From NCBI GenBank assembly GCA_964631675.1, contig CAZVXJ010000001.1:1-52703 (forward strand): a DNA stretch of 52,703 nt, given 5' to 3'. Source of the stretch: an uncultured Alphaproteobacteria bacterium. GTDB taxonomy: Bacteria > Electryoneota > RPQS01. Positions within the stretch are counted from its first letter, which is position 1. Each line of letters begins with the position of its first letter. Positions 2,769-52,479 of this stretch are shown piece by piece. The notes beneath the pieces are model-generated. The model made no database searches. It saw nothing but the letters and a program-made list of their open reading frames with translations, and was not told where the DNA came from. The position numbers and the translations under genes were made by a program.

Positions 2769-2856
2769 AGTATGAAATATGAAAGATGAACGAAGAAAAT
2801 TGAAGCTGAAAGCTGTCTTGGTATTTTTTTCATACTTCATCGTTCATACTTCATCT
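2763..2856 (+). repeat. 7-nt-periodic (N3)TGAA word array facing a TTCA(N3) array (hairpin spanning a stop codon and the next start)
   Basis: TGAA occurs at 2766, 2773, 2780 and 2787, then at 2801 and 2807 (near-period; AGAA sits at the intervening 2794 slot). TTCA occurs at 2829, 2836, 2843 and 2850. Confidence 0.65.
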
Positions 2857-3381: not shown

Positions 3382-3410
3382 TCGAAAAACGATGAACGAG
3401 GAACGATGAA
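3376..3410 (+). repeat. Five tandem 7-nt words CGNNNAA containing the start codon at 3406
   Basis: cgataat / cgaaaaa / cgatgaa / cgaggaa / cgatgaa. Confidence 0.6.
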
Positions 3411-3999: not shown

Positions 4000-4161
4000 C
4001 ACACTGCGCACACTGCGTGTGGTTTTCCTCCACCAAACAGGCGCCAATCTCCGAGGTGGTGCGATGGAAGAGTAGATTCGGGGCATGTCCTTCCTTCGTC
4101 AGGATAAATTCCGACACGTGCCTCGGTGAAGAAATTTTGATTTTTCGATTTCCCCCCTTAA

Positions 4162-4184
4162 TCCCCCCACAAGATGTGGAGGGA
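4162..4184 (+). repeat. C-run/G-run hairpin with AGA loop and GAAGAAGA tail (copy 1)
   Basis: TCCCCCCACA-AGA-TGTGGAGGGA pairs at 9 of 10 positions. A second C-run (4151-4157) precedes it and GAAGAAGA follows it. Confidence 0.6.
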
Positions 4185-4210
4185 GAAGAAGATATAATTA
4201 GGAGTTTGAA

Positions 4211-7200
4211 ATGGGTGCAAGAGAGGTATTGAGCACGATCAGCAACTGGATGATGGGACTGCGGCGCGCGGTGATGGCCAATCGCTTGAAGGCGGGAGCC
4301 ATGTTTGCCGTGGCGGGATTTCTGTCATTCACTCTTGTCATAATGGTATTAGAAGCTATCGGCCATTTCCCCGGGGCACTGCGTGCCTTCTTGTTGGGGA
4401 GTTGGATTGTATCAGGGCTCGCGGCAGTGGGTCTCGGCATTGTGTGGCCGATTTTGAAGTACACGGTGTTCGCGCCGAGTCATAAACAGCTTGCGGGAGA
4501 ATACGCAGAGCGTATGCCGCAGGTGAAAGATCGTGTGCTGAATGCCTTGCAGCTTCTGGATCAGGTGGAAGGCGCGAACCGCGAAGGCTATTCAACGGAC
4601 ATGATTCTGGCGGCGGGCCGCGAAGTCGCGGAGGAACTGCGTTCTGTGAACTCACAGGATTTGCCCGATAAGCGTCCGGTGAAAATGGGTCAGCGTTTCG
4701 CCCTGGCTTCAGTGGGACTAACTGTGGTCATGCTGCTCGTGGCCGGAAGTTCTCTGCTTAGTGCCGGTGAGCGTGTGCTGAAACCGGGCGAGGAGTTTGC
4801 TCCTCCGGCGGCGTTCACGCTTTCACTGAAACCGGGAGATGTGGAACTCGTGCGCGGCGATTCGCTGGTTGTGGAAATTTATGTGGTCGGCGATGCGCCG
4901 GAAGAGGTAATTTTGGAACGGCTGGAGTCGGGGAAGAATGCAGGGGAGCCGGTGACGCTGGAAAGCGGAAAACAGAAAGCGGAAAGCGGAAGTCAGACGG
5001 AGGGTGTAAAACTGGAATACACTTACCGTGGGATTACGGCGCCGTTTACATATTGGGCGCACGCGGCGGGTGTGAATTCGGAAAAGTACAAAGTTTCGGT
5101 GCAGGAACTGCCCAGCGTGAAATTTCTCTCGCTGCGCGTGCAGCCGCCGGCTTATACGGGATTGGAAGAGACCGTGCTCGAAGAAAACGTTGGCGACGTG
5201 GCGGCAGTCGTAGGCACGAAAGTGAAACTCTCATTGGCGGCAACGAAGAGTTTGAAGAGTGCGCGGTTGGAGTTCGCGGCTCCCTCGATGAATGCAGATT
5301 CCGGGCAGGTGAGGACACCTGCCTCGGCGACCACGCTCCAGCTTGTGGTAGAAGGATCGCGGGCGAATGGGGAATTTGAAGTCAAGGAAAGCGGCTATTA
5401 CAAAATCAGACTGACCGACAGCGAAGGTTTGGAAAACCGCGATCCGATTCAATACCGAGTTACGGCGCGCAAAGACGAAGCGCCGATGATTACAATCAAG
5501 CAGCCGTCTGAAGATATTGACATCGCAGCGAATGTGAAGGTGCCTGTGGTGACGGAAGCGATTGACGACTATGGTTTCACGAAGATGAATCTGCGCTACT
5601 TCCGCACGTCGGCTTTTGAGCGCGCTGAAGAGCGAGAGAACGAAGCGAACTACCAGACCAAACCGCTGGAATGGAACATGCTCGAAGCCGGCAAAGCTGC
5701 CGCGGAGTATGTGTGGGATATGGGGCCGCTGGACCTGCTGCCGGAAGATCAGGTGCTGTTCTTTACCGAGGTCTGGGATAATGACCGCATCTCGGGACCC
5801 AAGCGCGCTCGCAGTGAAACGCGCACGCTGAGATTCCCCTCGATGGCCGAAATTTTTAATGAGCAGGAAAAGCAGGACGAAGCGCAGCAGATATCGCTCG
5901 CGGACTTGCTGAAGGAGTCGGAAGAACTTCGCGAAAAGGTTGAAGCGGCGGTAGAGGAGTTCAAGTCGAATCCGGAAATGAGCTGGGAGAAGAAGCAGGA
6001 GATGGAGCAGCTCATGGAAAAGCAGAAGACGATGAACGACATGCTGAGCCAAATCTCGGAGGCCATGGAAAAGGCGGCCGAGCAGATGGAGCAGCGCGCC
6101 ATGTTCTCGCCCGATGTGATGGAAAAGATGCAGAAGATTCAAGAACTCGTGAAAGAGGTGTTGACTCCGGAAATGAAAGAGGCGCTGAAGAAAATGGCCG
6201 AGGCCATGAAACAGCCGACGGAAGAAGAGATGCGCCGCGCGATGGAGAACATGCAGAAGAATCAAGACCTTTTCGAGCAGGCGCTGGATCAGACTTTGAA
6301 CATGCTGGAACAGCTCAAGGTCGAAAAGAAGATGGATGAACTGACGCGCCGTCTGGATGAACTGGGCCGCCAGCAGGAGCAGCTCAATGAAAAGATGGAT
6401 CAGAACACTCCGGAAACTGCGCCAAAGAATGCCGAGCAGCAGAAGAAATTGTCCGAAGAGATGAAGGCCATCGAGAAGGAGCTGCAGAAGCTGGCCGAAG
6501 AGATGAAGGAAAAGCAGATGAAGGCCGCCGAAAAGATGGACAAGATGAGCAAGGAGGCGGAGCAGCAGAAGATGAGCGAGGAGATGAAAAAGAACTCCGA
6601 GCAAATGTCGATGTGCAACAACTCCCAGTGCAAGAAGCAAGGCAAGAAGAACCGCCGTCAGATGTCGGAGATGGCCAACCAGCTGCAGAACATCAAGAAC
6701 GAAATGAATCAGAGCGAGGATCAGGAAGCACTGGAGGCTCTGGAAAAAGCACGCGATCAGATGCTCGACTTGTCCATGCGGCAGGAGCAGCTTTGGAAGC
6801 AGTCGGAAAATCTGGAAGCCGGAAGTCCGCAGGCCGCACAAGTGGCGGAAGAACAGGAAAATCTGCGGCAAGCACTTTCTCGTGTGAAGCAGGACATGGA
6901 GGAACTTGCGCGCAAGTCCATGCACGCCACGCCGAAACTTGTTGCCGCGATGAGCGAAGCCGAAGCACAGATGAAACAGGCCGCGCAATCGGCTTCAGAA
7001 CGCGACCAGCGTACGGCATCACACTACCGCAAGCAGGCATTGTCGGCAATGAACGCGGCACTCAAGGAGAACCAGAGTTCATGCTCGAGCTGCAAGAGTG
7101 CGTGCAATAAGCCCAACCCGAATTCACAGTGCAACAGTGCCGGGCAGATGGCCGGCGAGCAGCAGAAGCTGAATGAAGGCACCCGGAGCATGATGCAGGG

Positions 7201-7660
7201 CAATCAGAATCCCGGCAGCCTGGGGATGGGTGAACAGGCTTCGATGCAGCGACTGGCCGTCGAGCAGGAAGCATTGGCGAAAAGTGCGCGGCAGCTTGCG
7301 GAAGAGGCGAAGGCATCACAGCAGAGCCTCGGCAAGATGGAAGACATTGCCAAGGAGATGGAGGAGGTCGCTCAGGATTTGAAGAACCGCAACGTGTCGG
7401 AGCGCACGCTGGAAAAGCAGGACAGGATAGAATCCCGGCTGCTCGATTTTCAGCGCGCCAATCGCGAGCGTGAGTTTTCTCCGAAGCGGCAGGCCAACAC
7501 AGGCATAGACATCGTGCGCACATCGCCGAAAGCAATGCCGGAGAAGCCGGGACAAGATCAGCTGAGAGAGGATATGCTGCGCGCGCTCGATGCCAAGTAC
7601 ACTCCGGACTACGAGAGTTTGATTCGATCGTACTTTGAAGCGCTGGGAAAGATGAAGTAA
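4211..7660 (+). CDS. DUF4175-like large membrane-anchored protein with ~600-aa Met/Glu/Lys/Gln-rich coiled coil
   Basis: 1149-aa ORF with AGGAG 8 nt upstream. N-terminal TM hairpin (AMFAVAGFLSFTLVIMVL / LLGSWIVSGLAAVGLGIVWPIL) and a mid-domain with 'EAIDDYGF'. Long low-complexity helical region and a C-terminal 'YESLIRSYFEALGK'. The family assignment rests on architecture plus DUF4159 nearby, and is a recollection. Confidence 0.85.
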   Translation: MGAREVLSTISNWMMGLRRAVMANRLKAGAMFAVAGFLSFTLVIMVLEAIGHFPGALRAFLLGSWIVSGLAAVGLGIVWPILKYTVFAPSHKQLAGEYAERMPQVKDRVLNALQLLDQVEGANREGYSTDMILAAGREVAEELRSVNSQDLPDKRPVKMGQRFALASVGLTVVMLLVAGSSLLSAGERVLKPGEEFAPPAAFTLSLKPGDVELVRGDSLVVEIYVVGDAPEEVILERLESGKNAGEPVTLESGKQKAESGSQTEGVKLEYTYRGITAPFTYWAHAAGVNSEKYKVSVQELPSVKFLSLRVQPPAYTGLEETVLEENVGDVAAVVGTKVKLSLAATKSLKSARLEFAAPSMNADSGQVRTPASATTLQLVVEGSRANGEFEVKESGYYKIRLTDSEGLENRDPIQYRVTARKDEAPMITIKQPSEDIDIAANVKVPVVTEAIDDYGFTKMNLRYFRTSAFERAEERENEANYQTKPLEWNMLEAGKAAAEYVWDMGPLDLLPEDQVLFFTEVWDNDRISGPKRARSETRTLRFPSMAEIFNEQEKQDEAQQISLADLLKESEELREKVEAAVEEFKSNPEMSWEKKQEMEQLMEKQKTMNDMLSQISEAMEKAAEQMEQRAMFSPDVMEKMQKIQELVKEVLTPEMKEALKKMAEAMKQPTEEEMRRAMENMQKNQDLFEQALDQTLNMLEQLKVEKKMDELTRRLDELGRQQEQLNEKMDQNTPETAPKNAEQQKKLSEEMKAIEKELQKLAEEMKEKQMKAAEKMDKMSKEAEQQKMSEEMKKNSEQMSMCNNSQCKKQGKKNRRQMSEMANQLQNIKNEMNQSEDQEALEALEKARDQMLDLSMRQEQLWKQSENLEAGSPQAAQVAEEQENLRQALSRVKQDMEELARKSMHATPKLVAAMSEAEAQMKQAAQSASERDQRTASHYRKQALSAMNAALKENQSSCSSCKSACNKPNPNSQCNSAGQMAGEQQKLNEGTRSMMQGNQNPGSLGMGEQASMQRLAVEQEALAKSARQLAEEAKASQQSLGKMEDIAKEMEEVAQDLKNRNVSERTLEKQDRIESRLLDFQRANREREFSPKRQANTGIDIVRTSPKAMPEKPGQDQLREDMLRALDAKYTPDYESLIRSYFEALGKMK

Positions 7661-8572: not shown

Positions 8573-9640
8573 GTGATGGGACACCGCGCAGTCAATCCGA
8601 CCTTCATCAGTCTCGAATCCCTGATGTTCATGACGTATACGCATGCGGACGATCGCAATGAACGACAGATCTGGATGAACCATGATGGAGACGTGACGCG
8701 AGATCAATGGGTTGATTTGGGAGATGTCATGCACGCCGCGGCGAACGGTGATTCAGTCGTGGTAGCGGATTATACATCGGAGTATGTGGGCGACCTGATG
8801 CAATTCCGGCTCAGCGTGCGCGAGTTTGCACCGGACGGCGCACTGGTTACCCAACAAGTTGTGATGGCCGACACGCTGCCGTTCGGGCAACTTGTGGCCG
8901 GATCGGGCTTTGATGACCGGGACGGCGTGATGACGGGCATGCTGATAGTCGTTAACGCGCTTGAGGATCCGGTCGAATATGAAATGCGAGCGTTTCGCTA
9001 TGACGCGGGAACCGATGCGGTCACATTGTATGAGCCAGCTCCGGTTTCAGTTTTCCCGGGCAGCTACGTGGACTGGTGGGCGATTGATGACGGACCACCC
9101 TGGGCGGAATCGCTGATTCTGGCCTATCATTTGGTCACGTCAGGCGGCAACGGACATTTTGTGTATCAATCTTACGATGAGAATTTGCAGCTGATTGGCG
9201 AGAGAACACAGGACCAGCCGCCCAATCAGTACGCAAACGGGCTGGAAATCACGCTGGAGTACAACACGGTGTATACAGCCTTCACGGCACTCTCTGATGA
9301 TTCACTTTTGCGCGGGTGCTGGCTCTCGGGATTTCCGCTGGAGGAGATACTGGGCGCGGAAACTCGTTCACCGCAGCCCGTCGAGTTTGCCTTGACAAGC
9401 TACCCCAACCCGTTTAACAGCACGGTGCGGATCCGGTTTACAGTTCCGGGCGAGCAAGTTGTGACGGCGCGAATTTTTGATGTGACCGGGAGAGAGGTGG
9501 AAAGACTGGCTGAGGACACATGGAGTCCAGGCAGTCAGGAATTGACTTGGAGCGCGCGGAATGCCGCAAGCGGAATCTATTTTGCCCGAATTGAAGCGGG
9601 GAATTTCTCCGGTACGGCGAAGATGGTCTTGATAAAGTGA
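8573..9640 (+). CDS. C-terminal part of the same T9SS cargo protein (T9SS type-A sorting domain, no signal peptide of its own)
   Basis: Ends in 'SYPNPFNSTVRIRFTV...GIYFARIEAGNFSGTAKMVLIK*', a Por/T9SS C-terminal domain (about 9386..9637). The frame is open back to 8519, immediately after the TGA. Confidence 0.8.
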   Translation: MMGHRAVNPTFISLESLMFMTYTHADDRNERQIWMNHDGDVTRDQWVDLGDVMHAAANGDSVVVADYTSEYVGDLMQFRLSVREFAPDGALVTQQVVMADTLPFGQLVAGSGFDDRDGVMTGMLIVVNALEDPVEYEMRAFRYDAGTDAVTLYEPAPVSVFPGSYVDWWAIDDGPPWAESLILAYHLVTSGGNGHFVYQSYDENLQLIGERTQDQPPNQYANGLEITLEYNTVYTAFTALSDDSLLRGCWLSGFPLEEILGAETRSPQPVEFALTSYPNPFNSTVRIRFTVPGEQVVTARIFDVTGREVERLAEDTWSPGSQELTWSARNAASGIYFARIEAGNFSGTAKMVLIK

Positions 9641-24203: not shown

Positions 24204-24503
24204 TTAGTCGTAGAGCGGGTTGTAGCTCTGGCGAGCGGGAACAATGGAGAGCAACAGCACTATATCTGCATTAAATTGATAGTAGACCGCATAGCTAACG
24301 CCCTCGGCGGGTTCGAAACTGAATACCCAGATTCCGGGGGTGCGAGTGCGGTGGCCGGATTCGGGGTTGCGCGCCAAGGGCCAATAGACTGCGTTTTGAT
24401 AGATCCGGTCGGCATCGCGGTCGTCGAAAGAGATGCGTGATTTCTCAAGTAGGAACTGCTCGTGTTCCTGAATTATTCTAAGGCGAGGACTATCGGACGG
24501 CAT
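24204..24503 (-). CDS. ParE/RelE-like putative toxin paired with the Panacea-domain antitoxin
   Basis: 99 aa. An N-terminal helical part with '...LARNPESG' is followed by beta-strands 'GIWVFSF...SYAVYYQFNADIVLLLSIV', a layout resembling ParE/RelE. It overlaps the upstream gene by 14 nt. The assignment comes from pattern only. Confidence 0.45.
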   Translation of the reverse strand: MPSDSPRLRIIQEHEQFLLEKSRISFDDRDADRIYQNAVYWPLARNPESGHRTRTPGIWVFSFEPAEGVSYAVYYQFNADIVLLLSIVPARQSYNPLYD

Positions 24504-25035
24504 CCGGCAACTTCGGGGTCAACGAGTCTGCGTGTGCAAGTTCAAAGTCGGTCGGTTCGCGCCTTGAGATAAACACGGTCTCATACGGAATATCTTCGCC
24601 CATACTTGCGATTTCCCAGCCGATGAAACGGTGCGAGAATTCGGAGATATCGGTGGCGGATTTGTTACGCAACAAGGCGATCATCTCGTCCACGATCGCG
24701 ATCTCGTCTCCGGAAAATGAGGTCAAGATTGGATCGCGCAAGTGAATCAAGCGATCTTGACGGAGTCCGTTAAGCTCGGTGTGCTGAAGTGCAGCTGCTC
24801 CCTCGCGAATCATCTCGTCTCGGACTTCTGTGAACTTTGCTGGTGCCGGGCCGTGCTCCAGTTTGCGATAGCTATGGCCGGTAATGGATTGCCCAAGCGT
24901 CTTGAATGCCAGAAAATCTGAAAAGAAGAGAACCTTGTTCAGCTTGGTCGCTCCGTAGAACGGGTCATCGTACGAGCGCTTCGCCGCGTAAAGGATTAGT
25001 TCTTTGAGTTTTGAGTTTTTCGACAACTGACTCAT
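24490..25035 (-). CDS. Panacea (DUF4065, SocA-like) domain protein, putative PanA-type antitoxin
   Basis: 'KLNKVLFFSDFLAFKTLGQSITGHSYRKLEHGPAP' matches the DUF4065 core (KLqKLLYf.d......g.pl....f.aw.hGPv). AGGTGA lies upstream of the ATG. Confidence 0.7.
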   Translation of the reverse strand: MSQLSKNSKLKELILYAAKRSYDDPFYGATKLNKVLFFSDFLAFKTLGQSITGHSYRKLEHGPAPAKFTEVRDEMIREGAAALQHTELNGLRQDRLIHLRDPILTSFSGDEIAIVDEMIALLRNKSATDISEFSHRFIGWEIASMGEDIPYETVFISRREPTDFELAHADSLTPKLPDAVR

Positions 25036-28340: not shown

Positions 28341-30476
28341 TTACGGTTGTTCACCGCCCGTCGTGTCTTCCTCCATCGTAACCAGATAGAAGAATTTTTC
28401 GGACGGGTTATTCAAGATACCCGTGTCAATGAAGGTCGTGTCGGAAGTTGAGCCAATGCGCAAATTAGGACCGGGAGTGAAGTCCGGTGTGCGGGAACGA
28501 TAGATATTGAATATCGGTTCGGTTGGATCGGAGCTCCAGGCAAGTTTGATATGCGGATTAAAAGGCACGCCATGTCCGAGCACGACATCAATGATGAAGC
28601 ACTTGCCACACTGTACGATGGAGGTGTACTGCGAGCACGGGATACCGTTCGTGACGGTGGGCGTGACATGCAAGTAATAGGTTCCGGCTGCGAGACAAAG
28701 GACAAACGCGTTTTTCGTTTGACAAGGATTGCCCGTCAAGTCGCGAATCGTGACCAGGTTGCTGCAATCAGGCGTGGGACGCAGAAGCTGCATTTGGAAC
28801 GGAAACTCCGCCCGAACCCGCCAATTAATGCGACGCGGCGCGAGCAGAGTAAAGGTATACCAATCGTGATCCACGATGCCGCCCATGGCAAATGAAGTTG
28901 CACACAAGCCCTGGTTGCAGCCCTGAAAGCCGAAGGGTGGCGGCGTGAGCCCCGAGGTGCAGCCGCCGTTGTAAGAATCTGGCCCGGTGATGTTCGGACA
29001 AATTTCTCCGTCCAGCGAGTAGCTTCCGCAGCTGATGTCGCACGGGCAGGCACAGTTTGAACAGCGCATCGTCAGCACATAGGGTCCGGTCGAAAGCCCG
29101 ACGCCTTGCACAAGCAGTTTGTAGGTGCCGGGCGGAAGACATGGTGTGACCATCGCGGCATCGTCACCCACTCCGGAACTGTCATCGAAACCCAAAAGTG
29201 TTGTGCAGTCTGATTGGAATAGTGCGATGCGCGGATTGAGTCCCTGCCCATAGGTGTACCAGCCAAACGCGTCGTCGGCATAACAGTTGATGGTTGCGCT
29301 GCGGCAGCTTGGTCCGGGAATGGTGATGTTATACCAGTCACGGTCGGGTGCACCGGCTCCCGTCTGAATTCGTCCGCAGAGTGTATCCGGGCAGCCAAAA
29401 ACGGAAGTGGTTTGCGGGCAGGAGTCGTCCGTTGGCTCGAAATCCTGCGTCGGATAGGGACAGGTGTCAGGTGGAACACTCAGGCAGGGAATACACTGCA
29501 CGCTTGCGACGTAAGGTTTACAGACAAATCCCGTTGGGCCGTTGGCCGCGACTCTGAGCCAATAGGTTCCGGGATTCAGACAGGCGGAAATGCAAATTTG
29601 TTGACAGGCAAGGGCGCTGCCCACGGCATGCACGGCCATCGCCGGACAGGTTAGCGCAGGCGTGTAAATTCCGGTCATGATCGGAAAGTCTGCCGTCACG
29701 CACCAGATCACGCTGTCGACACTCGTCAGAGTGATTTCATAAAAGTCGTTGTCCGGCCAATCCTGCATGATGCCCATGCCGCAGATGGTGTCGCCGCATT
29801 CCACGTGCATACCCACCGGCGGATAGGATGTGCAGCCGCCGTTATAGATATCCCATTGGCTGGGACAGGGCTCGTTTTCCTGAATGGCTGTAACCGGACA
29901 CGGTTCGCAGGGAGTACAAGGATAACAATTCACTTCTGCCGTGTAGGGATCCAAGGTGCACTCGACGTTCAGTCCGTAAGGCAATACAGTCAACCAGTAT
30001 TCGCCCGGTGGAAGGCAGGCTCCAATGCACGTCGTTTCGCAGCGAGTCATTTCAGCGGTCGCCCAAGTTATTGTGGGTCCGCAGCCACCCGTCAGCGGCT
30101 CGAGAATTCTAATCTGTCCGTTGAAGTTTGCGTAGACGCACCACGACACGCTGTCGTAACTGGTCAGATTGATCTCGTAGACATCCAGATCATTGTAGCC
30201 CGGACCTGAATCGGAGGTTCCGCAAAGTTGGTCGCCGCACTGAACGGGGAAAGTATAAACACTCCCGCCCACACAGCCGCCGTTATAGTGATCAATCAGA
30301 TTGGGGCACGGTTCGTTTTCCAGTATTGAAACAGCCGGATCACATTCCGGACACGGAAGGCACGGTTGACAATCGAGAGAAATCCAGTAGTCAGCACTGC
30401 TGCAGGGCACACCTCCCGCAGGGCCGGAGGGATAGACCGTAACGTAATACGTTCCCGGATCAAGACAGTCAGACAT
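28341..30476 (-). CDS. C-terminal 711 aa of a Cys-rich PPC-like repeat exoprotein (no signal peptide of its own; FN3-like C-terminal module)
   Basis: Four ~140-aa units with 'ENEPCP...YNGGC...CG..CG....D.D.Y..TL......W.V.A.F' (pre-peptidase-C-terminal-like 'E-x-EP' and 'DxDWY' hallmarks). Same frame as 30525..31460, separated from it by one TGA. Confidence 0.85.
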   Translation of the reverse strand: MSDCLDPGTYYVTVYPSGPAGGVPCSSADYWISLDCQPCLPCPECDPAVSILENEPCPNLIDHYNGGCVGGSVYTFPVQCGDQLCGTSDSGPGYNDLDVYEINLTSYDSVSWCVYANFNGQIRILEPLTGGCGPTITWATAEMTRCETTCIGACLPPGEYWLTVLPYGLNVECTLDPYTAEVNCYPCTPCEPCPVTAIQENEPCPSQWDIYNGGCTSYPPVGMHVECGDTICGMGIMQDWPDNDFYEITLTSVDSVIWCVTADFPIMTGIYTPALTCPAMAVHAVGSALACQQICISACLNPGTYWLRVAANGPTGFVCKPYVASVQCIPCLSVPPDTCPYPTQDFEPTDDSCPQTTSVFGCPDTLCGRIQTGAGAPDRDWYNITIPGPSCRSATINCYADDAFGWYTYGQGLNPRIALFQSDCTTLLGFDDSSGVGDDAAMVTPCLPPGTYKLLVQGVGLSTGPYVLTMRCSNCACPCDISCGSYSLDGEICPNITGPDSYNGGCTSGLTPPPFGFQGCNQGLCATSFAMGGIVDHDWYTFTLLAPRRINWRVRAEFPFQMQLLRPTPDCSNLVTIRDLTGNPCQTKNAFVLCLAAGTYYLHVTPTVTNGIPCSQYTSIVQCGKCFIIDVVLGHGVPFNPHIKLAWSSDPTEPIFNIYRSRTPDFTPGPNLRIGSTSDTTFIDTGILNNPSEKFFYLVTMEEDTTGGEQP

Positions 30477-30524
30477 ACACGCGGTGTCACAGGCCAGACC
30501 AACGGTCTGGAAAATTACGGGGCT

Positions 30525-31460
30525 TCAACCAGCGCTGAAATACTGGTGCGCCTGCGCAATGAAATCAAATTCCGCGCTAATACACCACGTCAAGCTGTCG
30601 CGCTCGGTAATCGTGACGATATAGGCATCATGATCGAGGTGCGATCCCCAGAAGGCGGTACCGCAGCGTGTCTCTCCGCAGTTCAGCGTGGTGGCATGAA
30701 AGGGGTAGTTAAAGCACCCGGCATTATAATTGTCCGGATAACCTGAAGGACAGCCTTCGCCTTCGGCCAGTGCTCCGGTCGGACACAGCACGGAACAAGG
30801 CGGGCAAGGTTCATTCGGACAGGCACCCGGCGCTCCAACGTGGAGAACATAGTCTCCGCTCTCCGAGCCCGCGCCGTCAATAATGATGTAGTAGGTGTAT
30901 CCGGCGCGCATGAACACATTAGGGCAGCAGCTTTGCGGAGCGCAGGTTGCCCCATCATTATTACAGCAGACAAGATTCGCGGGGGGCGGGCCGGGACAAA
31001 GCTCCCAGACATAGAGAATGGTATTGAATGACGAGCCGCACAGTGATACGGAGACAATCTGATTGGTGGGCGAGGTGTAGCTGTACACCACATCCGGCGC
31101 CGTACTGAGTCCACAATTGACCGGCGGGACAAAGTCATCAAAGAATTCAATGGTCGAACCAAAATCGCAGTAGGGCAAGCTGTCAATCGGCGCGGCATCC
31201 GTGCAATTATCACCCCCTTGATCCAGCGAGCCTTCGCGGTCGCGCGGGAGTTGAGAATAGAGTGCGTTGAGTTGGTCAACGATAGGAAGCATAGCCTGCT
31301 CCCCTCCGCATTCAGCGCTAATTCGGGCGAGCTGATTCTGGAGGTCGGCAATGCGGGCGTACAGATCATCGCTCGATGCATCCTCGACGGTCGGCCGTGC
31401 TAGGAGCGGCACCGAGGAAAGGATGAGAATGAGTACGCAAAAAATTCGTTGATTAATCAT
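30525..31460 (-). CDS. N-terminal part (signal peptide, coiled segment, first Cys-rich modules) of the same exoprotein, ended by an in-frame TGA
   Basis: GGAG lies 8 nt upstream of ATG 31460, giving MINQRIFCVLILILSSVPLLA-RP. It contains one 'LPY.DFGST...APDVVY...SLCGSSFNT.L.V...CPG...CCNND' module. The stop TGA is at 30527-30525. Confidence 0.8.
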   Translation of the reverse strand: MINQRIFCVLILILSSVPLLARPTVEDASSDDLYARIADLQNQLARISAECGGEQAMLPIVDQLNALYSQLPRDREGSLDQGGDNCTDAAPIDSLPYCDFGSTIEFFDDFVPPVNCGLSTAPDVVYSYTSPTNQIVSVSLCGSSFNTILYVWELCPGPPPANLVCCNNDGATCAPQSCCPNVFMRAGYTYYIIIDGAGSESGDYVLHVGAPGACPNEPCPPCSVLCPTGALAEGEGCPSGYPDNYNAGCFNYPFHATTLNCGETRCGTAFWGSHLDHDAYIVTITERDSLTWCISAEFDFIAQAHQYFSAG

Positions 31461-32051
31461 AGCGAGTCTCCAAGTTGCTCTACCGGCGAGGGTCAACCCC
31501 ATCGTATCATGAATTGTTACAATTTAGTTAATCTGCGATGTGAGCGCAAGGAGTATCTGGCTCCGAAAAAAAAACTGCACGGCATTTGGATTGAATTCCA
31601 ACAAATAAGAGGCAGCTATAGCACATACAAACAAAAGATAAACAATAACTAACACGATCGGGCCAGATCGTTGTGGGTCATTACCAAGTGAGAGCCAGAG
31701 TCGGGACTACTCGAGCGAAGTTTTGGCGATTGCGCCGAATGGGTACCGAAAGTCGCTCATCCGATGCCTTCGAGTGGTACCAACGGCCGCCAATTATTTC
31801 GAGAATTTTACAAATGCCCCGGAACTCGTGAATCCACAGCAAGATATTCCACGTATAAGCATCGAAACGACGAGTGTCTGTCGTATTCAGAAAGAAACCA
31901 TGCCACAACATTTTCCCATTCACAGGTGAGCTAACACCTCGCCCGGCGTAGCCGGGCGCCCAACTTTAACCTCGCCGGAGGCCGTGGCGTGTAGGTAAGG
32001 CATTCGTCTACTCCTGCTCGTGCGGTCATTTCCGGCACAGCAAGGAGTCCC

Positions 32052-35678: not shown

Positions 35679-38600
35679 ATGAAGATCCGATCGCAATCTG
35701 TGCTGACGGCCGCGTGTCTCGCGGTGCAGATGTTAACATCATCCATGCAATTCGCTGTGGGAGCATTGCCACCGAGCAGTTTGTTCTCACTCTCTTCGGC
35801 TAACGTTCCGACCGTAACAATGAACGCAGTAGACAATGCAGCGCTCACTGCCGAAGACGAGATGGAACAGGCGGCTGCGCAGCTTGCGCAAACCACCATT
35901 CCTTACCAGATCGCCGAGCCGCTGGAAGTCCATCTGACTCTCGATAACTCAGGGAATTGGGAAACGCTCGCAAACGGCGATAGAATTTGGCGCCTGCGGA
36001 TTCTCTCCTCCGGCGCTACGGATCTTTTTCTGCTATACGATGCCTGGAGATTAGTCAAGCCTTGCGAACTGTGGCTCTACAATGATGACCGTTCGATGAT
36101 ACTCGGACCCTTCACCTACATTGACAATTGGGATGGAACGAATATCACGCCAATCACCGACGGAGATGCTGTCACGCTTGAATATTATGTGCCTGCGGGA
36201 GTCGAAGATGCCGGTGAACTTTCAATCATGCGTGTGCTGCATGGCTATCGTCAGTTTATCGCACGGCACGACGGAAACCGCGATCCGCTTGACGCCTTCG
36301 GCGACGCGATGCCATGCCATATCAACGTCCGCTGTTTCCCGGATTGGCAGGATGAGAAAAAATCTGTGGCGATGACGATTAATCCGATGGGCGGAGCCTG
36401 CTCGGGAACGATGCTCAACAATGTTCCGCAGAACGGTGCGCCGAATTTTCTCACGGCGAATCACTGTTTGGGAGGGAACTTGAGCAACTGGCTCTTTTAT
36501 TTCAATTATGAAAGTCCGCAGTGCAATCCGAATGCGAATGGCAACCTCAGCTATGTGATTCAAAATGCGTCGCTGCAGGCGAATGCATTACCGTCTGATT
36601 TCGCCCTGCTCAGGCTTTCGCGGCCACGACCGAACGCACCGTTCATTCCAAGATTTGAAGGCTGGGACAGACACGATATTGCGCCGGAAATCAGCATCAG
36701 CATTCACCATCCGAGCGCTGACGTGAAAAAAATTTCCTATGACACGAGTCCGGCGGTAAGTGATGATTATGGCGGATCTGAGGAACCTCATACTCATTGG
36801 CATTGTGAATGGGACTTGGGAACAACAGAGCCGGGTTCCTCCGGCGGGCCGCTGTTCGATGAATTCAGCCGGGTAGTAGGGCAGTGTCACGGCGGTTTTT
36901 CGGACTGCAATGTTGGCACGGAGGAAGATGTATGGTACGGAAAACTTTCGCGGAGCTGGAACGGTCCGACTTCGACTGACCGGCTGCGGGACTGGCTGGA
37001 TCCGGGCAACACCGGCGCTTGGGAGACAAACGCCTTCCAGCCGGTCGGCCCGCTGAATGACAGTTGCGGCCCGCTCGGTGAAAACATTCCGGTCATCTCA
37101 TCGGTTCCGTACTCGCATTCGGGAAGCACACAATGGGCATCCGATGATTATCAAGGCGGCTGTTTCGCGAATACGGCGCCGGATGTTTTCTACAGTTTGC
37201 GCATGAACTGCGATTATCAGATTACGATTTCGACGTGCGGATCCAATTTTGACACGCAGATTTACGTTACGAATGCGGCGTGTTCGCCGGGCGGTGCCTA
37301 CGTAATATGCAATGACGATTTCTGCGGAACGCAAAGTCAAGTCACATTTACTGCTGAAGCGGGCGAGCCTTATACCATCTGTATTGACGGCTATGGATCG
37401 GCCTGGGGAAATTACGTGATCAACGTGACGGGATTTGCTGCAGGGTCGCAGGGCAATGCGCAGTGCCCCGGCTTTCCCATCACCGAGATTCCGTACTTCA
37501 CATATGGTGCAAATTGGTGCGGAGGTGATCACATCACCCCGAGTTGCCGGAGCTCAGATAGCGAGGATATTCACTGGTACTGGGTCTCGCCTTACAGCCA
37601 GGCGATGCGTGCCAAGACCTGTTACATAAACTACGATACCATTCTGGAAGTTCGTTACAGCGGTTCGTGCCCGGGAACCTGGCTGGCGGGCTGCAATGAT
37701 GATACGTACTGCGGTCTGGATGCGCTGGCGAGCACCGTAGTGTTTGACGCATACAACGGCGTCACATTTTACATTCACCTCGATGGGTACAATGGTGCCA
37801 CCGGAATGGCATCGCTGGAACTGGAAGCCTACAATGACGACTGTTCCAGCCCGATTGTCGTGCCCAGCCTGCCCGCCAACTACGGCGGCGACACCAGGGC
37901 GGGCGTAGATGATTTTGCCACGGTTGTCGGACCATCCTCCAAAGAGCTGTTCTTCAAATACACCTCTCCCACTTGTCAGACGATGGGGGTGTCGCTGTGC
38001 GATCCGATTACGACATATGATACCGGGCTGGAAGTGCGCACGGGCGGCCCCTGCCCCGGATCGACGCTCGTTGCCTACAACGACGATCTCTGTGGTTTGA
38101 AGAGCCAGGTGATTTTCAGCGCGGAAGCAAACCGCACTTATTACATCATTGTTGGCGGTTACGGAACGAATGCAGGGCCGTTTATGGCATACTTCTATAA
38201 CATACCCGGAACTCCGGCCGCTCCGCTGGCAGATGTTTGCTTTGGCATTCAGGTCACAAATTTGCCGTTTACGGATTATGGCAATACGAATTGCATGGCA
38301 GACAACTTTGCCGACTGCGTGGGTTCCACGTCACCGGAGATGTATTACTCCCTCGTCCGTCCGCAGTGTGAAGAGGTTACAGTTTCGTTGTGCGGTTCGG
38401 GCTACGATACCGGACTGGGCGTCTACCAGGGCTTGTGTCCCGCCGGTGGACCTTGGGTTGTCTGCAACGATGACAACTACTGCGGTCAACTCTACACCTA
38501 CCAGAGCACAGTTTCGTTCACCGCATTGGCTAATACCTACTACCAGATACTGGTGCATGGCTTTTCTACCTATTCAGGTCCATACGTCATCAATGTCACA

Positions 38601-39023
38601 AGCTATCCATGCAACATACCCCCCGAGGCTGTGGATGATCAAGTTTCGCAGTTTAACCCGGCGACGGGCGATGTCGTGCTGACATGGGGCGCGGTTCCGG
38701 GGGCTGACATTTACCATATTTACCGCTCCTCGGTTTTCCAGAATCTGTTTCTACCTCAAAGTTTGATCGCGAGCGTGACGGGCACCAGTTACACCTGCGC
38801 CGGATGCATCAATGATCCGGCAGATCGTTCGTTCTTCGGAGTGACTTCCGAGAATTATGAGTCGGTGACGGCTCCGCCGCCCGAATTGCCGGACATCAGC
38901 ATGTTCACCAAGGCCGATGCGGTGCAGGGCCAGACTGTGCTGTCTCCGGAGGCCACCGTGCCAGCGCTCAATGCCGAGCATACACCAGAATGGAAACAGG
39001 CAGAGTTAAGCAACGGACAATAG
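35679..39023 (+). CDS. Secreted S1-family serine endopeptidase (lysyl-endopeptidase-like) with four Cys-rich modules and an FN3-like module
   Basis: Triad contexts are 'FLTANHC' (His), 'SDFALLRL' (Asp) and 'EPGSSGGPLF' (Ser). The prodomain 'NSGNWETLANGDRIWRLRILSSGA..L.LLYD.W.L' is typical of lysyl-endopeptidase precursors, by recollection. 1114 aa. Confidence 0.9.
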   Translation: MKIRSQSVLTAACLAVQMLTSSMQFAVGALPPSSLFSLSSANVPTVTMNAVDNAALTAEDEMEQAAAQLAQTTIPYQIAEPLEVHLTLDNSGNWETLANGDRIWRLRILSSGATDLFLLYDAWRLVKPCELWLYNDDRSMILGPFTYIDNWDGTNITPITDGDAVTLEYYVPAGVEDAGELSIMRVLHGYRQFIARHDGNRDPLDAFGDAMPCHINVRCFPDWQDEKKSVAMTINPMGGACSGTMLNNVPQNGAPNFLTANHCLGGNLSNWLFYFNYESPQCNPNANGNLSYVIQNASLQANALPSDFALLRLSRPRPNAPFIPRFEGWDRHDIAPEISISIHHPSADVKKISYDTSPAVSDDYGGSEEPHTHWHCEWDLGTTEPGSSGGPLFDEFSRVVGQCHGGFSDCNVGTEEDVWYGKLSRSWNGPTSTDRLRDWLDPGNTGAWETNAFQPVGPLNDSCGPLGENIPVISSVPYSHSGSTQWASDDYQGGCFANTAPDVFYSLRMNCDYQITISTCGSNFDTQIYVTNAACSPGGAYVICNDDFCGTQSQVTFTAEAGEPYTICIDGYGSAWGNYVINVTGFAAGSQGNAQCPGFPITEIPYFTYGANWCGGDHITPSCRSSDSEDIHWYWVSPYSQAMRAKTCYINYDTILEVRYSGSCPGTWLAGCNDDTYCGLDALASTVVFDAYNGVTFYIHLDGYNGATGMASLELEAYNDDCSSPIVVPSLPANYGGDTRAGVDDFATVVGPSSKELFFKYTSPTCQTMGVSLCDPITTYDTGLEVRTGGPCPGSTLVAYNDDLCGLKSQVIFSAEANRTYYIIVGGYGTNAGPFMAYFYNIPGTPAAPLADVCFGIQVTNLPFTDYGNTNCMADNFADCVGSTSPEMYYSLVRPQCEEVTVSLCGSGYDTGLGVYQGLCPAGGPWVVCNDDNYCGQLYTYQSTVSFTALANTYYQILVHGFSTYSGPYVINVTSYPCNIPPEAVDDQVSQFNPATGDVVLTWGAVPGADIYHIYRSSVFQNLFLPQSLIASVTGTSYTCAGCINDPADRSFFGVTSENYESVTAPPPELPDISMFTKADAVQGQTVLSPEATVPALNAEHTPEWKQAELSNGQ

Positions 39024-39084
39024 AACCGTGATGACGGTTCATTAGACTGTTTGTAGAGTACCCAGTGTCGAGAAGGAGGTCATT

Positions 39085-42000
39085 ATGCAGGGCCGCCGCA
39101 CACAAGCTCTCGTTCAAGCCGTTGTGCTTGGATTGACCATGATCGTGTTCTTTAGTCGCGCTGCAGCACAAATCAGCGCTGGTGGAACACCAATCAGTTT
39201 TGGGACTCCGATTGCCGGAGTGGTTCCGACAACGACGATGCCGTCAGTAGATGTGGCGGCATTACTGGCTGAAGACGCACTCGCTTCCGAAAACGATCCC
39301 TATCGATTTGCTGAGGGAATAGACGTTCACCTAAATTTGAACAACTCCGGCACATGGGTTGTATTGCCTAACGGCGACCGTCTTTGGCGGCTGCGAATTC
39401 AATCGGAAGGCGCGCAGACACTGGGGTTGATTTACGACGAGTGGAACTTACCGAAAGGGGCAAGGCTCTTTTTGTATAATGACGATCATTCGCATGTGAT
39501 CGGGGCATTCACGTCATCGAATAACTGGAGGGACGGAACGAATACGACGGCGCCGGTGCGGGGCGATGCCATCACACTGGAGCTTGTGGAACCTTCCGGT
39601 AAGCGGGGTGAATCGGTTTTGTCCGTGAGCAGGGTTTGCCATGCCTACCGCGGCGCATCCGGATTTCATTCGCGCGATCCCTTAGACGCATACGGCGCCT
39701 CGGATACGTGCATGATCAATGTGGCCTGTCCGCTGGGTGACGATTGGCAGAACGAAGCCAACAGCATCGCAAAAATATATGTTGCAGGTACTCACCTGTG
39801 TACCGGAGCGCTCATTCGTACTGCCGACGGCGCTTTTCATCCGTACATTCTCACGGCGAATCACTGTTTTAAGCCCGGAATGGCGAGTTCGGTGTTTGAA
39901 TTTGATTATAGAAGTGTGACCTGTGCGGGGCAGCAGCCGCCTGCAAGTACACATGTGATTGCGAACTGTGTTGTGAATGCGCGCTGGCGCCAATCGGATT
40001 TCATGCTACTCGAAATGTCCTCACTTCCGCCGGTGAATTGGACTCCCTATTTCGCCGGTTGGGATCGCAGAGATGTCATTCCGCCGAATACGACCGGATT
40101 GCATCATCCCCAAGGGGATGTGATGAAAATCAGCTTTGACAATGATTCACCTGTCGGCCCCAATCCGTTTGATACGACCTATGTGCCCGAAGGTCCTGAC
40201 CAATATATGTGGCGAGTCGTGGACTGGGATAATGGCTCCACGCAAGGCGGTTCTTCCGGTTCTCCCCTGTTTGACGCGAATCATCGCATTATCGGACAAC
40301 TATATGGCGGCGCTGCAACCTGCGCGAACAACCTATATGATAGGTATGGCCGGCTCGCGCGATCATGGTGGGGCGGTGACAGTTTTGACAGCTCACTAGT
40401 CTCTTGGCTTGATCTTAATGCGACGGATACCCTATTCATTAACGGGGCTTATCTCAACTCTCCGGCCAATGATCTCTGTCCGGGTATAGAAATCAGCTCG
40501 ATTCCATTTTCGCATTCGAGTTCAACGGCGCTGGCATCGCGCGATTATGACAATTTTATCGAAGGTGTTGGCCCGGAGGTCATCTACAGACTGAGTCTTG
40601 ATCCCGGATTTTATGAAAACCACCAACCGCTGCGGGTGAGTGTTTGTACGGCTGATTTCGACGCCGCTGTAGAAGTGCGCGACGGCTGTGAGTGCGGCAC
40701 GCTGGTCGCTTGGGATGATGATTTATGCGGACCGAACGCGGGAGCAAGATGCGATTTTGTAGCGTGGTACGCCCAGACCTACTACATTCGGGTGTACGGC
40801 GCAGGGACAGCCAGCGGAAATTATACCTTAAGCGTTACAGCACTGGCTCCGCCAGTGAGCTATGGTGGAGATAACTGCGGTGACATTACGACCTTGCCTG
40901 AAACGCCATTTTTAAGACAGGGGACGACTCTCGGTTACGCCGACGATTTCACGTTATGTTCGATAGGGTATGAAGAACCCGATGCAGTACACCGATTTCA
41001 GCCGGACACGAACGGATTTTATGTCGGACGCTATGCGTCATTGTTTTATTCCTGTCTGGTGGTCAGGCAATCGAACGCGTGTCCGGGTGGCAGTGATTGG
41101 TTTCATCCGGGTTATAACGGCCAAACGTTCGCGGTCAGTTATGCGCCGAACCCACCGACACGAATCTGGATAGACAGCAACGAGGAGAGCGCAACGGATC
41201 AGGGGAACTACTATCTTGAAATGCGCCATGTGGATTCATGCATCACCGGACCGCGCGCGAGCTGTATAGCGGCTCCCATGGCCACCGCTCCCTTTGCGGC
41301 GAGCGGAACGTATTTTTGCGAGCATCCGCTGAAAAACCTGAATCCGATCTGGTATCCTTTTGTGCTGGAACAGGTGTGTGATTTGGAGATTCTGCTCTGC
41401 ACGGACGCCGTATGCGGTTACGACTGTATTCTGGGTGCGGATGTATATTCAACATGTCCGGCAGGAGAGTTTCCTTTACCTGCCGATGAATATGATTACG
41501 CGCCTCAGGAATGTGATGTGGCCGGAATGAAGCAAACATACTATGCACTGCCTGCGGGAACCTATTACATTGCAGTATACGATTGGCTGTCTTGCGGGAA
41601 CGAAATCCAGTATGTACTGAACGTGGAATGTCCGCCGGGTGCGCGACCCGCGAATGACCGCTGTGAGCAAGCCGCTCCGGTCTCATTACCTGCAAATCTT
41701 ACGGGCACAACTGTGGGTTCGACGAAAGATTGCAGCTATCTTCCCGGCGGGGCGGAAACCTGGCACGCATTTACCGTGCCCGTTTCCAGCGATGTTACCT
41801 TGAATTTTTGCGGAACATCGCCGGCATTCTCAACAGTCAATACCGTGTTGGTTCAAAACTGTCCCTGTGATCCGACTTTGATTCAAGCGAGCAGCCTCGA
41901 ACAGTGCGGCGACGGTAATTATACGATGACATGGGTTGACCTTGCAGCAGGCACCTACTATTATCCGGTAAGGCACGAGGCGAATCTTGCAGACGGCCCA

Positions 42001-42663
42001 TACACAATAAATGCCACGGCATTCCCACATACTCCACCCAATGATGTAGGTCCGGGAGTACTCGTTCAATCGATACCCTTCTATTATGCCGGATCGACTT
42101 CCGGCGCACACTCAGAAGAGTACACAGGTTGTGACGATCAGGAAAGCCCAACCGTTTACTTCACATTGAATTTTCCCGAATGCCGTGATGTTGTTGTTGA
42201 TCTTTGCGGCTCAAGTTTCGATACGCGACTGGATTTGCGCACAGGCGGCAGTTTCCCGGGCGATTCCTTGCTGGCCTGCGGCCAGAATGAAACTTGCCCC
42301 GAAGATTCCTTCCCGCATGCCATGATTTCATTTCAGGCGTTGCCCAATACCAACTATTATCTCGTCGTACACGGTGAAGATGGCGCCAGCGGCCAATATC
42401 AAATGACCATTGAAGGAGCGGTTTGCGGCGGCGGCTTGGGCACTCCGGATTCGCTCGTAATACGCAGAAACGGAGATCACATTCGGCTGAATTGGAGTTC
42501 GGCTGCGGGCGCAGTTCACTACAACGTGTATCGCTCGAGCAATTCCGGAGTGGCGATTATTCCGGCAAATTTGATTGGGACATCTAATACGACCTTTTAC
42601 ACCGATTCATCGGCGGTGCTGAATCCGGCTGCGGCGAGATTTTACGCGGTGACGGCGGAGTGA
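39085..42663 (+). CDS. Secreted S1-family serine endopeptidase (tandem paralogue) with about five Cys-rich modules and an FN3-like C-terminal module
   Basis: GAAGGAGG ribosome-binding site. Triad contexts 'ILTANHCF', 'SDFMLLEM' and 'TQGGSSGSPLF'. The prodomain is the same as in the upstream gene ('NSGTWVVLPNGDRLWRLRIQSEGA'). Confidence 0.9.
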   Translation: MQGRRTQALVQAVVLGLTMIVFFSRAAAQISAGGTPISFGTPIAGVVPTTTMPSVDVAALLAEDALASENDPYRFAEGIDVHLNLNNSGTWVVLPNGDRLWRLRIQSEGAQTLGLIYDEWNLPKGARLFLYNDDHSHVIGAFTSSNNWRDGTNTTAPVRGDAITLELVEPSGKRGESVLSVSRVCHAYRGASGFHSRDPLDAYGASDTCMINVACPLGDDWQNEANSIAKIYVAGTHLCTGALIRTADGAFHPYILTANHCFKPGMASSVFEFDYRSVTCAGQQPPASTHVIANCVVNARWRQSDFMLLEMSSLPPVNWTPYFAGWDRRDVIPPNTTGLHHPQGDVMKISFDNDSPVGPNPFDTTYVPEGPDQYMWRVVDWDNGSTQGGSSGSPLFDANHRIIGQLYGGAATCANNLYDRYGRLARSWWGGDSFDSSLVSWLDLNATDTLFINGAYLNSPANDLCPGIEISSIPFSHSSSTALASRDYDNFIEGVGPEVIYRLSLDPGFYENHQPLRVSVCTADFDAAVEVRDGCECGTLVAWDDDLCGPNAGARCDFVAWYAQTYYIRVYGAGTASGNYTLSVTALAPPVSYGGDNCGDITTLPETPFLRQGTTLGYADDFTLCSIGYEEPDAVHRFQPDTNGFYVGRYASLFYSCLVVRQSNACPGGSDWFHPGYNGQTFAVSYAPNPPTRIWIDSNEESATDQGNYYLEMRHVDSCITGPRASCIAAPMATAPFAASGTYFCEHPLKNLNPIWYPFVLEQVCDLEILLCTDAVCGYDCILGADVYSTCPAGEFPLPADEYDYAPQECDVAGMKQTYYALPAGTYYIAVYDWLSCGNEIQYVLNVECPPGARPANDRCEQAAPVSLPANLTGTTVGSTKDCSYLPGGAETWHAFTVPVSSDVTLNFCGTSPAFSTVNTVLVQNCPCDPTLIQASSLEQCGDGNYTMTWVDLAAGTYYYPVRHEANLADGPYTINATAFPHTPPNDVGPGVLVQSIPFYYAGSTSGAHSEEYTGCDDQESPTVYFTLNFPECRDVVVDLCGSSFDTRLDLRTGGSFPGDSLLACGQNETCPEDSFPHAMISFQALPNTNYYLVVHGEDGASGQYQMTIEGAVCGGGLGTPDSLVIRRNGDHIRLNWSSAAGAVHYNVYRSSNSGVAIIPANLIGTSNTTFYTDSSAVLNPAAARFYAVTAE

Positions 42664-52400: not shown

Positions 52401-52479
52401 CCTACCCTCGGGAGTCTATGTGTATAAACTCGAAGTAAACGGTTTCAGCGATGCGAAGAAGATGCTGCTGTTGAAGTAG
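49462..52479 (+). CDS. Multidomain exoprotein: lamin-tail-like domain, C39-like cysteine peptidase, TSP3-type Ca-binding repeats, proprotein-convertase P-domain, FN3-like domain, T9SS sorting domain
   Basis: GGAGGTGA ribosome-binding site. 'VVINEV...[14 protein letters not shown]' (LTD-like). '[17 protein letters not shown]' plus '[10 protein letters not shown]' (papain/C39-like Cys and His). '[12 protein letters not shown] / [12 protein letters not shown] / DVDGDGL' repeats. '[30 protein letters not shown]...GDWQIRF' (P-domain). The C-terminus is '[17 protein letters not shown]...KKMLLLK*'. Confidence 0.9.
   Translation: [1005 protein letters not shown]

Follow-up and report, generated by a model that had tools for sequence, protein, structure and literature searches.

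A candidate selenoprotein family of secreted, disulfide-rich bacterial proteins with a compact SECIS-like hairpin inside the gene

The window analysed here, that is, the whole 52,703-nt stretch of contig CAZVXJ010000001.1 (assembly GCA_964631675.1), carries on its minus strand a gene for a secreted, Cys-rich protein of ∼1,050 residues, whose reading frame is interrupted by one TGA. This codon, UGA326, is predicted to be recoded as selenocysteine (Sec), with a hairpin shortly downstream as the bacterial Sec insertion sequence (SECIS) element; on the comparative sequence evidence, the probability of this reading is put at about 90%. The initial annotation had offered two explanations for the interrupted frame, a Sec candidate and a fresh pseudogene or assembly error. 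The first is supported by 15 orthologous sequences that have both the TGA and a co-varying hairpin, and by a Cys-form orthologue that has no hairpin; the second is refuted by the conservation of the same two features in the 15 sequences.

One gene called as two

Regarding its layout, the gene appears as two open reading frames (ORFs), 30525..31502 (325 aa) and 28341..30476 (711 aa), both on the minus strand and in one shared frame. The read-through translation of 28341..31502 has 1,053 sense codons and one internal stop at codon 326, which is the TGA at 30527-30525 (minus strand), placed between QYFSAG and SPVIFQTVGLACDTACMSDCLDPGTYY; 16 sense codons separate it from the ATG called as the start of the 711-aa ORF. 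This agrees with the initial annotation, which had described two ORFs in one frame parted by one TGA and 16 sense codons. The whole gene (28341..31502, minus strand; 1,053 residues plus stop) has no other in-frame stop, and in-frame conservation among its orthologues extends to either side of the TGA; the two ORFs are almost certainly a single gene for a secreted Cys-rich protein, mis-split by ORF calling. As for composition, Cys accounts for 7.4% of the joined protein, with 78 Cys codons against the single in-frame TGA.

A Sec-type (general secretion) signal peptide, read from the translation (MINQRIFCVLILILSSVPLLA, followed by RP), spans 31398..31460 (minus strand), and its first codon, the ATG at 31460 (M15), is likely the true start of the gene. 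It belongs to the N-terminal ORF only, and the translation of the 711-aa ORF has none. The same is seen in the orthologue L001, where a putative signal peptide (MNTRYLLGWLLLLTLPLLALA, followed by DQ), again read from the translation, is confined to the N-terminal fragment.

A reassigned genetic code in this lineage, with UGA read as Trp or Gly (code 4 or 25), has nothing in its favour beyond the in-frame TGA itself. TGA is the ordinary stop of 9 of the 29 long ORFs in the window, therefore the genetic code is standard, as had been maintained from the start; these ORFs include 8573..9640, which carries the C-terminal domain of type IX secretion system (T9SS) cargo, and several hold solid Pfam domains. 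In addition, the gene has one in-frame TGA in 1,053 codons, and each orthologue has it in one repeat unit only, so that the chance of a reassigned code is negligible.

The TGA occupies an invariant Cys column

The protein contains five tandem units related to the PPC/collagen-binding domain, and the TGA falls in the first of them, at +20 from W306; a Cys stands at exactly +20 from W454 in the next unit, and Cys is also found at the position equivalent to the TGA in units 3 and 5. When 37 domain copies, paralogous and orthologous, are aligned, this column (C85) is an invariant Cys. Both the +20 spacing and the 37-copy alignment agree with the initial placement of the TGA on the Cys column of the protein's own repeats. 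In every gene or locus, the TGA is confined to the first PPC-like unit, and the remaining units have Cys.

Orthologues of the gene

A search with the joined protein returned close homologues of ∼1,010 aa, whose predicted N-termini (MPISQTGGLECDTVC and MPTAQTGGLACDTVC, for instance) align just after the TGA of the window, and one full-length homologue, P0002, which is uninterrupted over 1,327 aa and has Cys at the column (GESCNVPFYY). Orthologue DNA was then drawn from genome, metagenome and read-assembly collections, and it gave 15 distinct Sec-form sequences: the window, L001, L002, L004, L005, L006, L007, L008, L020, L021, L022, L031, L032, L034 and L035. All have an in-frame stop at the same column, always TGA and never TAA or TAG; their amino acid identity is 44-93% over a 350-residue segment, and they fall into three deep clades.

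The sources are independent: metagenome-assembled genomes (MAGs) at NCBI, metagenomes from JGI, assemblies from ENA and Logan, and one contig of 3.37 Mb from GCA_963853605.1. Carriers of the gene include GCA_963853605.1, on its contig CAWKXM010000006.1, as well as JADKHW01, JADJCU01, CAYORN01, JADLDM01, the Calditrichota MAGs to which MCB1059814.1 and MCB9367826.1 belong, and the assembly of the window itself; the isolates Skiv_18-Q3-R9-52_BATAC.286 and Aved_18-Q3-R54-62_BATAC.765 are, judging by their names, presumably Danish activated-sludge MAGs. One record, that of the P0014/L032 cluster, has the NCBI label Calditrichota bacterium, and the other records read plain "bacterium". Proteins of 313-327 aa, grouped in three clusters at 50% identity, also came out of an exhaustive search with the 325-aa fragment; their match extends to their last residue, and they are N-terminal fragments cut at the TGA.

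These data bear directly on the idea of a pseudogene with a fresh TGY-to-TGA mutation, or of an error made in sequencing or assembling this contig. A single base turns TGC or TGT into TGA, and 78 Cys codons provide many targets; but the same TGA recurs in 15 orthologues that come from independent samples and assemblers and share as little as 44% identity; purifying selection still acts on both halves of the gene, and covariation is seen in the RNA helix. The probability left to such an accident is minute.

As for the Cys form, the locus of P0002 (L030), from the Logan assembly SRR8569140, has TGT at the column and no qualifying hairpin, and it nests within the TGA clade of a midpoint-rooted neighbour-joining tree. 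Because of these three traits, L030 would fit a secondary Sec-to-Cys replacement with subsequent decay of the SECIS, the pattern expected for such an event. L030 is syntenic with L001: upstream, both have genes for an apolipoprotein N-acyltransferase (LNT), a YfiO-like protein, a CTP-transferase-like protein, a T9SS protein and a tricorn-like S41 protease, and downstream, both have a ZU5-domain protein. The orthologue check favours the Sec proposal, with TGA and hairpin in the same register in the 15 sequences, and TGT without hairpin in the lone Cys form.

The SECIS-like hairpin

The candidate SECIS is the hairpin CCAGACC-GUU-GGUCUGG at 30494..30510 (minus strand), which starts 14 nt past the TGA and lies inside the coding sequence; it is 17 nt long, with 7 bp and a 3-nt loop, and the distance from the UGA to the apical loop is 21 nt. 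The perfect hairpin 14 nt 3' of the TGA had already been read from the letters, and the single-sequence fold agrees, because the same hairpin is the centroid structure (-10.5 kcal/mol). Compared with shuffles, the 76-nt fold has z = 0.2, which is not remarkable, and for this reason the hairpin is not arguable from the window sequence alone; it is its conservation across orthologues that raises the observation above chance.

The 15 sequences align gap-free from the TGA through the hairpin, and RNAalifold, run on the first 12, returns one helix only, columns 30-36 with 40-46. Over the 15 sequences, 98.1% of the cells form standard pairs and compensatory changes occur in four of the seven pairs: pair 5 is A-U or G-C (8 vs 7 sequences), pair 4 changes from G-C to A-U or C-G, pair 2 from C-G to U-A, and pair 3 from A-U to U-A. 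The covariation score is 0.373 vs 0.188 in shuffles, a value that none of 500 shuffles reached, and sliding the 3' arm by 1-3 columns lowers pairing to 5-50%. Stems are perfect in 13 of the 15 sequences, L034 and L035 among them; L007 and L032 have one internal mismatch each.

The helix changes together with the peptide that it encodes: Q-T-x-G-L, W-A-G-G-L, Q-A-G-G-L and F-A-G-G-E correspond to the stems CCAGACC/GGUCUGG, CUGGGCC/GGCCUGG, CCAGGCC/GGCCUGG and CUUCGCC/GGCGAAG, respectively. L004 (6357-6393; CCAGACC/GGUCUGG) and L005 (6378-6414; CUUCGCC/GGCGAAG) differ in three stem pairs while their proteins are 93% identical, with non-synonymous substitutions in either arm (Q-T..G-L vs F-A..G-E). 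Because they alter the encoded amino acids, these changes are not silent hitch-hikers, and the pair of loci points to fast compensatory evolution of an RNA helix within a coding region.

Finally, the loops seen are GUU, GGU, GGA and GUA, that is, always G(G/U)N. When compared with the bacterial SECIS (bSECIS) consensus model of Zhang and Gladyshev, as summarised in PMC13188914, 11 of the first 12 sites scanned conform to it with a perfect stem, and the spacing is always 21 nt. By these features, the hairpin would be an ordinary but unusually compact bSECIS.

Translation past the UGA and competing explanations

In the window, L031, L006, L022, L034 and L035, there is no ATG for at least 16 codons after the TGA, and the peptide is still conserved in frame; for example, the post-TGA peptide is SPVIFQTVGLACDTAC in the window vs SPVIFQAGGLACDTVC in L031, with six synonymous and three non-synonymous changes. 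Codons that are conserved without a nearby ATG are therefore translated by read-through. Moreover, the model of unit 1 from the Cys-form orthologue places the TGA mid-domain, inside one β-sandwich, and the splitting of a single domain between a secreted part and a part devoid of signal peptide is not sensible.

Some results weigh against recoding as Sec. The element is short, and in a control on these genes, a SECIS-like hairpin was found by chance downstream of 41 of 873 ordinary Cys codons (∼5%). Rfam has nothing at the gathering threshold in the window, and under permissive settings, the segment 30400-30600 matched nothing but a long non-coding RNA, by chance; the Rfam models of bacterial SECIS are family-specific, so that this null weighs little. 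As for the Sec machinery, an ARAGORN scan of the window and of ∼340 kb of flanking DNA from related genomes, ∼390 kb in all, gave no tRNA-Sec, and tblastn gave no match to SelA, a SelA-SelB fusion or SelD in the window and the loci searched; over ∼390 kb, this null is absence of data and not evidence of absence. Among the 8,000 candidates scored for E. coli SelA in a database of 5.8 billion proteins, the 120 matches listed are all enterobacterial. Lastly, 9 of the 15 orthologues have an ATG exactly two codons past the TGA (U-x-M; sites at L001:9995-10003, L002:533-541, L004:6343-6351, L007:491-499, L021:3361-3369 and L032:2995-3003), an arrangement that, alone, would permit two abutting genes. 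Other selenoprotein genes were sought in the window and loci as TGA codons conserved on both sides, and the scan was dominated by off-frame conservation between close loci; only the TGA under study stood out, with 35-53 matches having a stop symbol or Cys aligned to it.

The first competing explanation takes the UGA as a true stop between two genes: the 325-aa secreted protein would end at Gly325, the downstream ORF would be translated by termination-reinitiation, and the hairpin would serve for coupling or mRNA stability. Gene callers do give two adjoining ORFs, one with 313-327 aa and one with ∼1,010 aa, and the size of the second (1,010-1,011 aa) is due to the ATG two codons past the TGA. 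However, this ATG is probably a conserved Met only, and the six orthologues without it contradict a stop-and-restart, since their intervening 16-30 codons are conserved as protein. The break would also fall within one β-sandwich domain, on the invariant Cys column, and it would leave the extremely Cys-rich downstream part without any signal peptide. In the syntenic orthologue, a single ORF of 1,327 aa runs through the site without interruption and encodes Cys there, and the stop in the other orthologues is TGA each time, with neither TAA nor TAG. Two separate genes are accordingly regarded as very unlikely.

The second is selenium-independent read-through, in which a near-cognate tRNA (Trp or Cys) would decode the UGA often enough to be useful, with stimulation by the hairpin, in hosts without a Sec pathway. 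Programmed read-through would likewise conserve the UGA, the hairpin and the frame, and the lack of Sec machinery in the ∼390 kb covered is compatible with it. On the other hand, Cys in the 37 domain copies and in the lone non-TGA orthologue is the Sec/Cys signature, Trp is unfit for a disulfide position, and the loop (G-G/U), the stem length and the spacing of the hairpin all agree with the bSECIS consensus; hairpin-stimulated UGA read-through is not known as an established, conserved mechanism for bacterial chromosomal genes. This explanation is considered very unlikely, and recoding as Sec is the one retained in what follows.

Proposed decoding and role of Sec326

Following the canonical mechanism, the SelB·GTP·Sec-tRNA(Sec) complex would bind the hairpin and deliver Sec to the ribosomal A site, so that UGA326 would be decoded rather than terminate translation; these genomes are then expected to have selA, selB, selC and selD.

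As for the partner of Sec326 in the folded protein, the Cys of the Sec column and that of the "C-L-x-P-G-x-Y" strand co-occur in 236 of 242 PPC-like family units; in 121 of these, which belong to a simpler subtype, they are the only Cys of the stretch, and of the two positions in between, C97 has Cys in only 115 units and C101 in only 52. Given this co-occurrence, and the frequent absence of C97 and C101, we infer that Sec326 may pair with Cys346 (the C of CLDPGTYY; 30465..30467, minus strand), with a selenenylsulfide replacing a structural disulfide.

The other Cys residues of the units have their own pattern. In the copies from P0001-P0029, compared by eye, the Cys of "WC" (C66) and C101, the middle Cys of "C-x3-C-x3-C", are gained or lost together, and units with "WR" or "WT" have no C101, which suggests that C66 and C101 form an optional extra disulfide.

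Regarding its function, Sec326 would stand in for one Cys of a structural disulfide and give the first module a more reactive or lower-potential cross-link; the best guess is that this bond would be reducible or exchange-competent, acting as a redox switch or as a covalent capture site. A classical thioredoxin-type active site is probably not the role of Sec326, because the modules belong to a ligand-binding fold. It is tentatively proposed that Sec326 is non-catalytic and forms half of a structural disulfide with Cys346, for structural or redox-switch use in a secreted binding protein, and that it has been kept as such across deeply diverged lineages; this proposal is held with far less confidence than recoding itself.

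Domain architecture of the protein

After the signal peptide come a Cys-rich N-terminal domain, five disulfide-rich β-sandwich modules in tandem and a small C-terminal domain, all encoded on the minus strand. The N-terminal Cys-rich domain (LDQGGDNC...YVLHVGA; 30831..31226) was delimited by similarity search, and no Pfam model matches it. When the 325-aa N-terminal ORF was searched against 1.84 billion representative proteins, 4,502 proteins were retrieved at E ≤ 0.001, and most of the best-scoring stretches lie in residues ∼90-240. This domain (residues 93-224; LDQGGxxC...YxIxVDG...GxYxL) is a very widespread module of large secreted proteins, with often many matching stretches per protein, in proteins of 1,000-5,000 aa.

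Unit 1 (30360..30782), PPC/collagen-binding-domain-like and the sole unit with the UGA, was delimited by the internal repeat alignment and by the model of unit 1 from the Cys-form orthologue; units 2 (29916..30338) and 3 (29484..29897), both PPC-like and with Cys at the Sec column, come from the repeat alignment. Unit 4 (29046..29462), recognised from the translation, is of a second repeat subtype (CPYP...DWY...GQGLNP...), and residues 749-800 of the protein, inside this unit, give a weak match to the DVUA0089 family of NCBIfam, 27.9 bits and thus below the 29-bit cutoff. Unit 5 (28599..29030) is the PPC-like unit found by the Pfam PPC model (PF04151) at residues 879-947, with 30.3 bits against a cutoff of 25.9; it is the sole unit above threshold, units 1-4 being below it.

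The C-terminal domain (28344..28598), of ∼85 residues with an acidic tail ending in GGEQP, is conserved in orthologues and has no Pfam match. The acidic tail (28344-28370 in the window) closes in E-P or Q-P in nearly all of P0002-P0018, with the endings GGEQP, PPQEP, PEEQP, GDVEP, DVQEP and SDLEP, and it could be a sorting or processing signal. In a Pfam scan at E ≤ 1, the joined protein has no Por_Secre_tail (PF18962), the domain expected of T9SS cargo.

As for the fold, unit 1 of the Cys-form orthologue was modelled with AlphaFold2 (predicted local distance difference test, pLDDT, 92.5; predicted TM-score, pTM, 0.87). The 140 residues form an eight-stranded β-sandwich in which the Sec column lies in the loop after strand 73-81. 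With this model, Foldseek retrieved the collagenase PPC/collagen-binding domains 5sv5 and 1nqd as top PDB matches, along with 2o8o, 4hpk and the C-terminal domain of the C. perfringens enterotoxin (E ∼1e-5, probability 1.0), and 3jqw, again with probability 1.0; on the strength of the model, the modules are assigned to the PPC/collagen-binding β-sandwich fold.

Genomic neighbourhood

Three neighbours in the window, 8573..9640, 45648..49202 and 49462..52479, carry Por_Secre_tail (PF18962). Because of such T9SS cargo genes, the host probably belongs to the Fibrobacteres-Chlorobi-Bacteroidetes (FCB) group.

Other genes of the window complete the picture. Two tandem paralogous ORFs at 35679-42663, of 1,114 and 1,192 aa, have Trypsin_2 domains; this pair is followed by a PD40-repeat protein and by two T9SS cargo proteins of ∼1,000-1,180 aa (45648-52479), giving a cluster of large secreted proteins. 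At 24490-25035 (minus strand), a SocA/Panacea antitoxin-domain gene is on the strand opposite to its neighbours, beside small ORFs without a Pfam match, and this locus may be a toxin-antitoxin or defence insert. The region 1068-7660 encodes DUF4159 and DUF4175 proteins, with three ORFs without a Pfam match between them.

In the orthologous loci, the surroundings of the gene follow more than one pattern. One clade (L001:5455-14667, L030:6403-15633, L032:1-7700) has a ∼1,100-aa gene upstream and a ∼450-aa ZU5-domain protein downstream; the former encodes the tricorn-like S41 protease in L001 and L030, and the copy of L032 has no Pfam match and runs off the locus. The context of the window and L031 differs, with phosphonate-binding-like and acyl-CoA dehydrogenase genes nearby. 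In the Logan locus L033 (1923-2797), the N-terminal part is divided between two called ORFs (98 and 193 aa), and the C-terminal protein is identical to that of L032; this split is probably an assembly frameshift unrelated to the TGA.

Implications

In nearly all known selenoproteins, Sec is in a redox-active site, typically in a thioredoxin-like or metal-cofactor context. Here, the position of Sec would be one that is otherwise always a disulfide Cys, in an extracellular β-sandwich binding module, only one of five near-identical modules, and the system has a natural internal control, the Sec unit against the Cys units and the Sec orthologues against the Cys orthologue, for studying what a selenenylsulfide does outside the cell. 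The selenoproteome would gain a family from poorly studied uncultured bacteria. Besides, the 17-nt bSECIS, with its unusually clear covariation, would be useful for refining bSECIS models. Concerning annotation, the public records seen have the gene split into "hypothetical protein" entries of ∼315 aa and ∼1,010 aa, which should be one selenoprotein.

Comparison with known systems

The closest parallel to the proposed recoding is given by genes of the E. coli fdhF type, with the SECIS inside the ORF: there too, an in-frame UGA aligns with Cys in homologues and a stem-loop follows within the coding sequence. The minimal fdhF element is a 17-nt upper stem-loop ∼11 nt past the UGA; the hairpin described here is similar, with 17 nt and an offset of 14 nt. 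Unlike the fdhF-type proteins, the host protein is no oxidoreductase and has neither a thioredoxin-like nor a molybdopterin fold; it has no UxxC or CxxU motif, the local context being G-U-x-(M/P), and the hairpin loop is only 3 nt, with no evident bulged U. Its G-G/U loop, 7-bp stem, 21-nt spacing and energy of about -10 kcal/mol are all within the published bSECIS constraints (PMC13188914).

Export of a selenoprotein is not unprecedented, because exported and outer-membrane families have been catalogued: DUF1573 (UGC), the FCYXU-type TonB-dependent receptor, the MtrB/PioB-like GSU2204, the ExtKL cytochrome, UshA-like and DsbA/DsbG-like proteins and a selenobacteriocin (PMC13188914, Table 1). 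They demonstrate that Sec proteins can leave the cytoplasm, and DUF1573 and the TonB-dependent receptor are, in addition, β-rich, non-thioredoxin proteins of anaerobic or FCB-type bacteria. They share no domain with the protein of this study, a multi-module protein in whose repeated disulfide framework one Cys would be exchanged for Sec; what is unusual is the fold and the apparent structural-disulfide position, and not export. Among the 119 prokaryotic selenoprotein families and subfamilies of the 2026 catalogue, PF04151 and NF038127 are both absent (PMC13188914, Table 1). The initial view that Sec in an exported disulfide-rich protein would be very unusual is in line with this catalogue, which has no such family, though it lists periplasmic and outer-membrane selenoproteins. 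A literature search on Sec together with Calditrichota, Caldithrix, the PPC domain or a secreted Cys-rich bacterial protein found nothing relevant.

With regard to structure, the PPC and collagen-binding domains are the nearest relatives of the modules, with Foldseek TM values of 0.5-0.6 (query-normalised) and 0.5-0.8 (target-normalised) for the model of the Cys-form unit 1; they are ligand-binding or accessory modules of secreted proteins. The differences are substantial: sequence identity is 11-20%, the modules described here have ∼140 residues and 10-12 Cys each with no protease attached, and the solved relatives have no Sec. The solved collagen-binding domains are not known to have such a disulfide framework.

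At the sequence level, Pfam finds only PPC (unit 5) in the joined protein, and NF038127 (DVUA0089 family) is the only match in NCBIfam release 20, with P0002 scoring 52.1 bits against the 29-bit cutoff. DVUA0089 and MXAN_6577-like proteins also have Cys-rich repeat modules in large secreted proteins; a Sorangium "MXAN_6577-like cysteine-rich protein" is a distant match, MXAN_6577-like being the name given by NCBI to the match P0090. In contrast to the members of the DVUA0089 family, the window protein matches below the cutoff and over only ∼50 residues of unit 4, and the catalogue has no selenoprotein subtype of this family.

In conclusion, the selenocysteine reading is strongly supported by the orthologues, and the gene, missed by both the 2026 catalogue and NCBIfam, represents a new predicted selenoprotein family that would make use of a known bacterial recoding mechanism.

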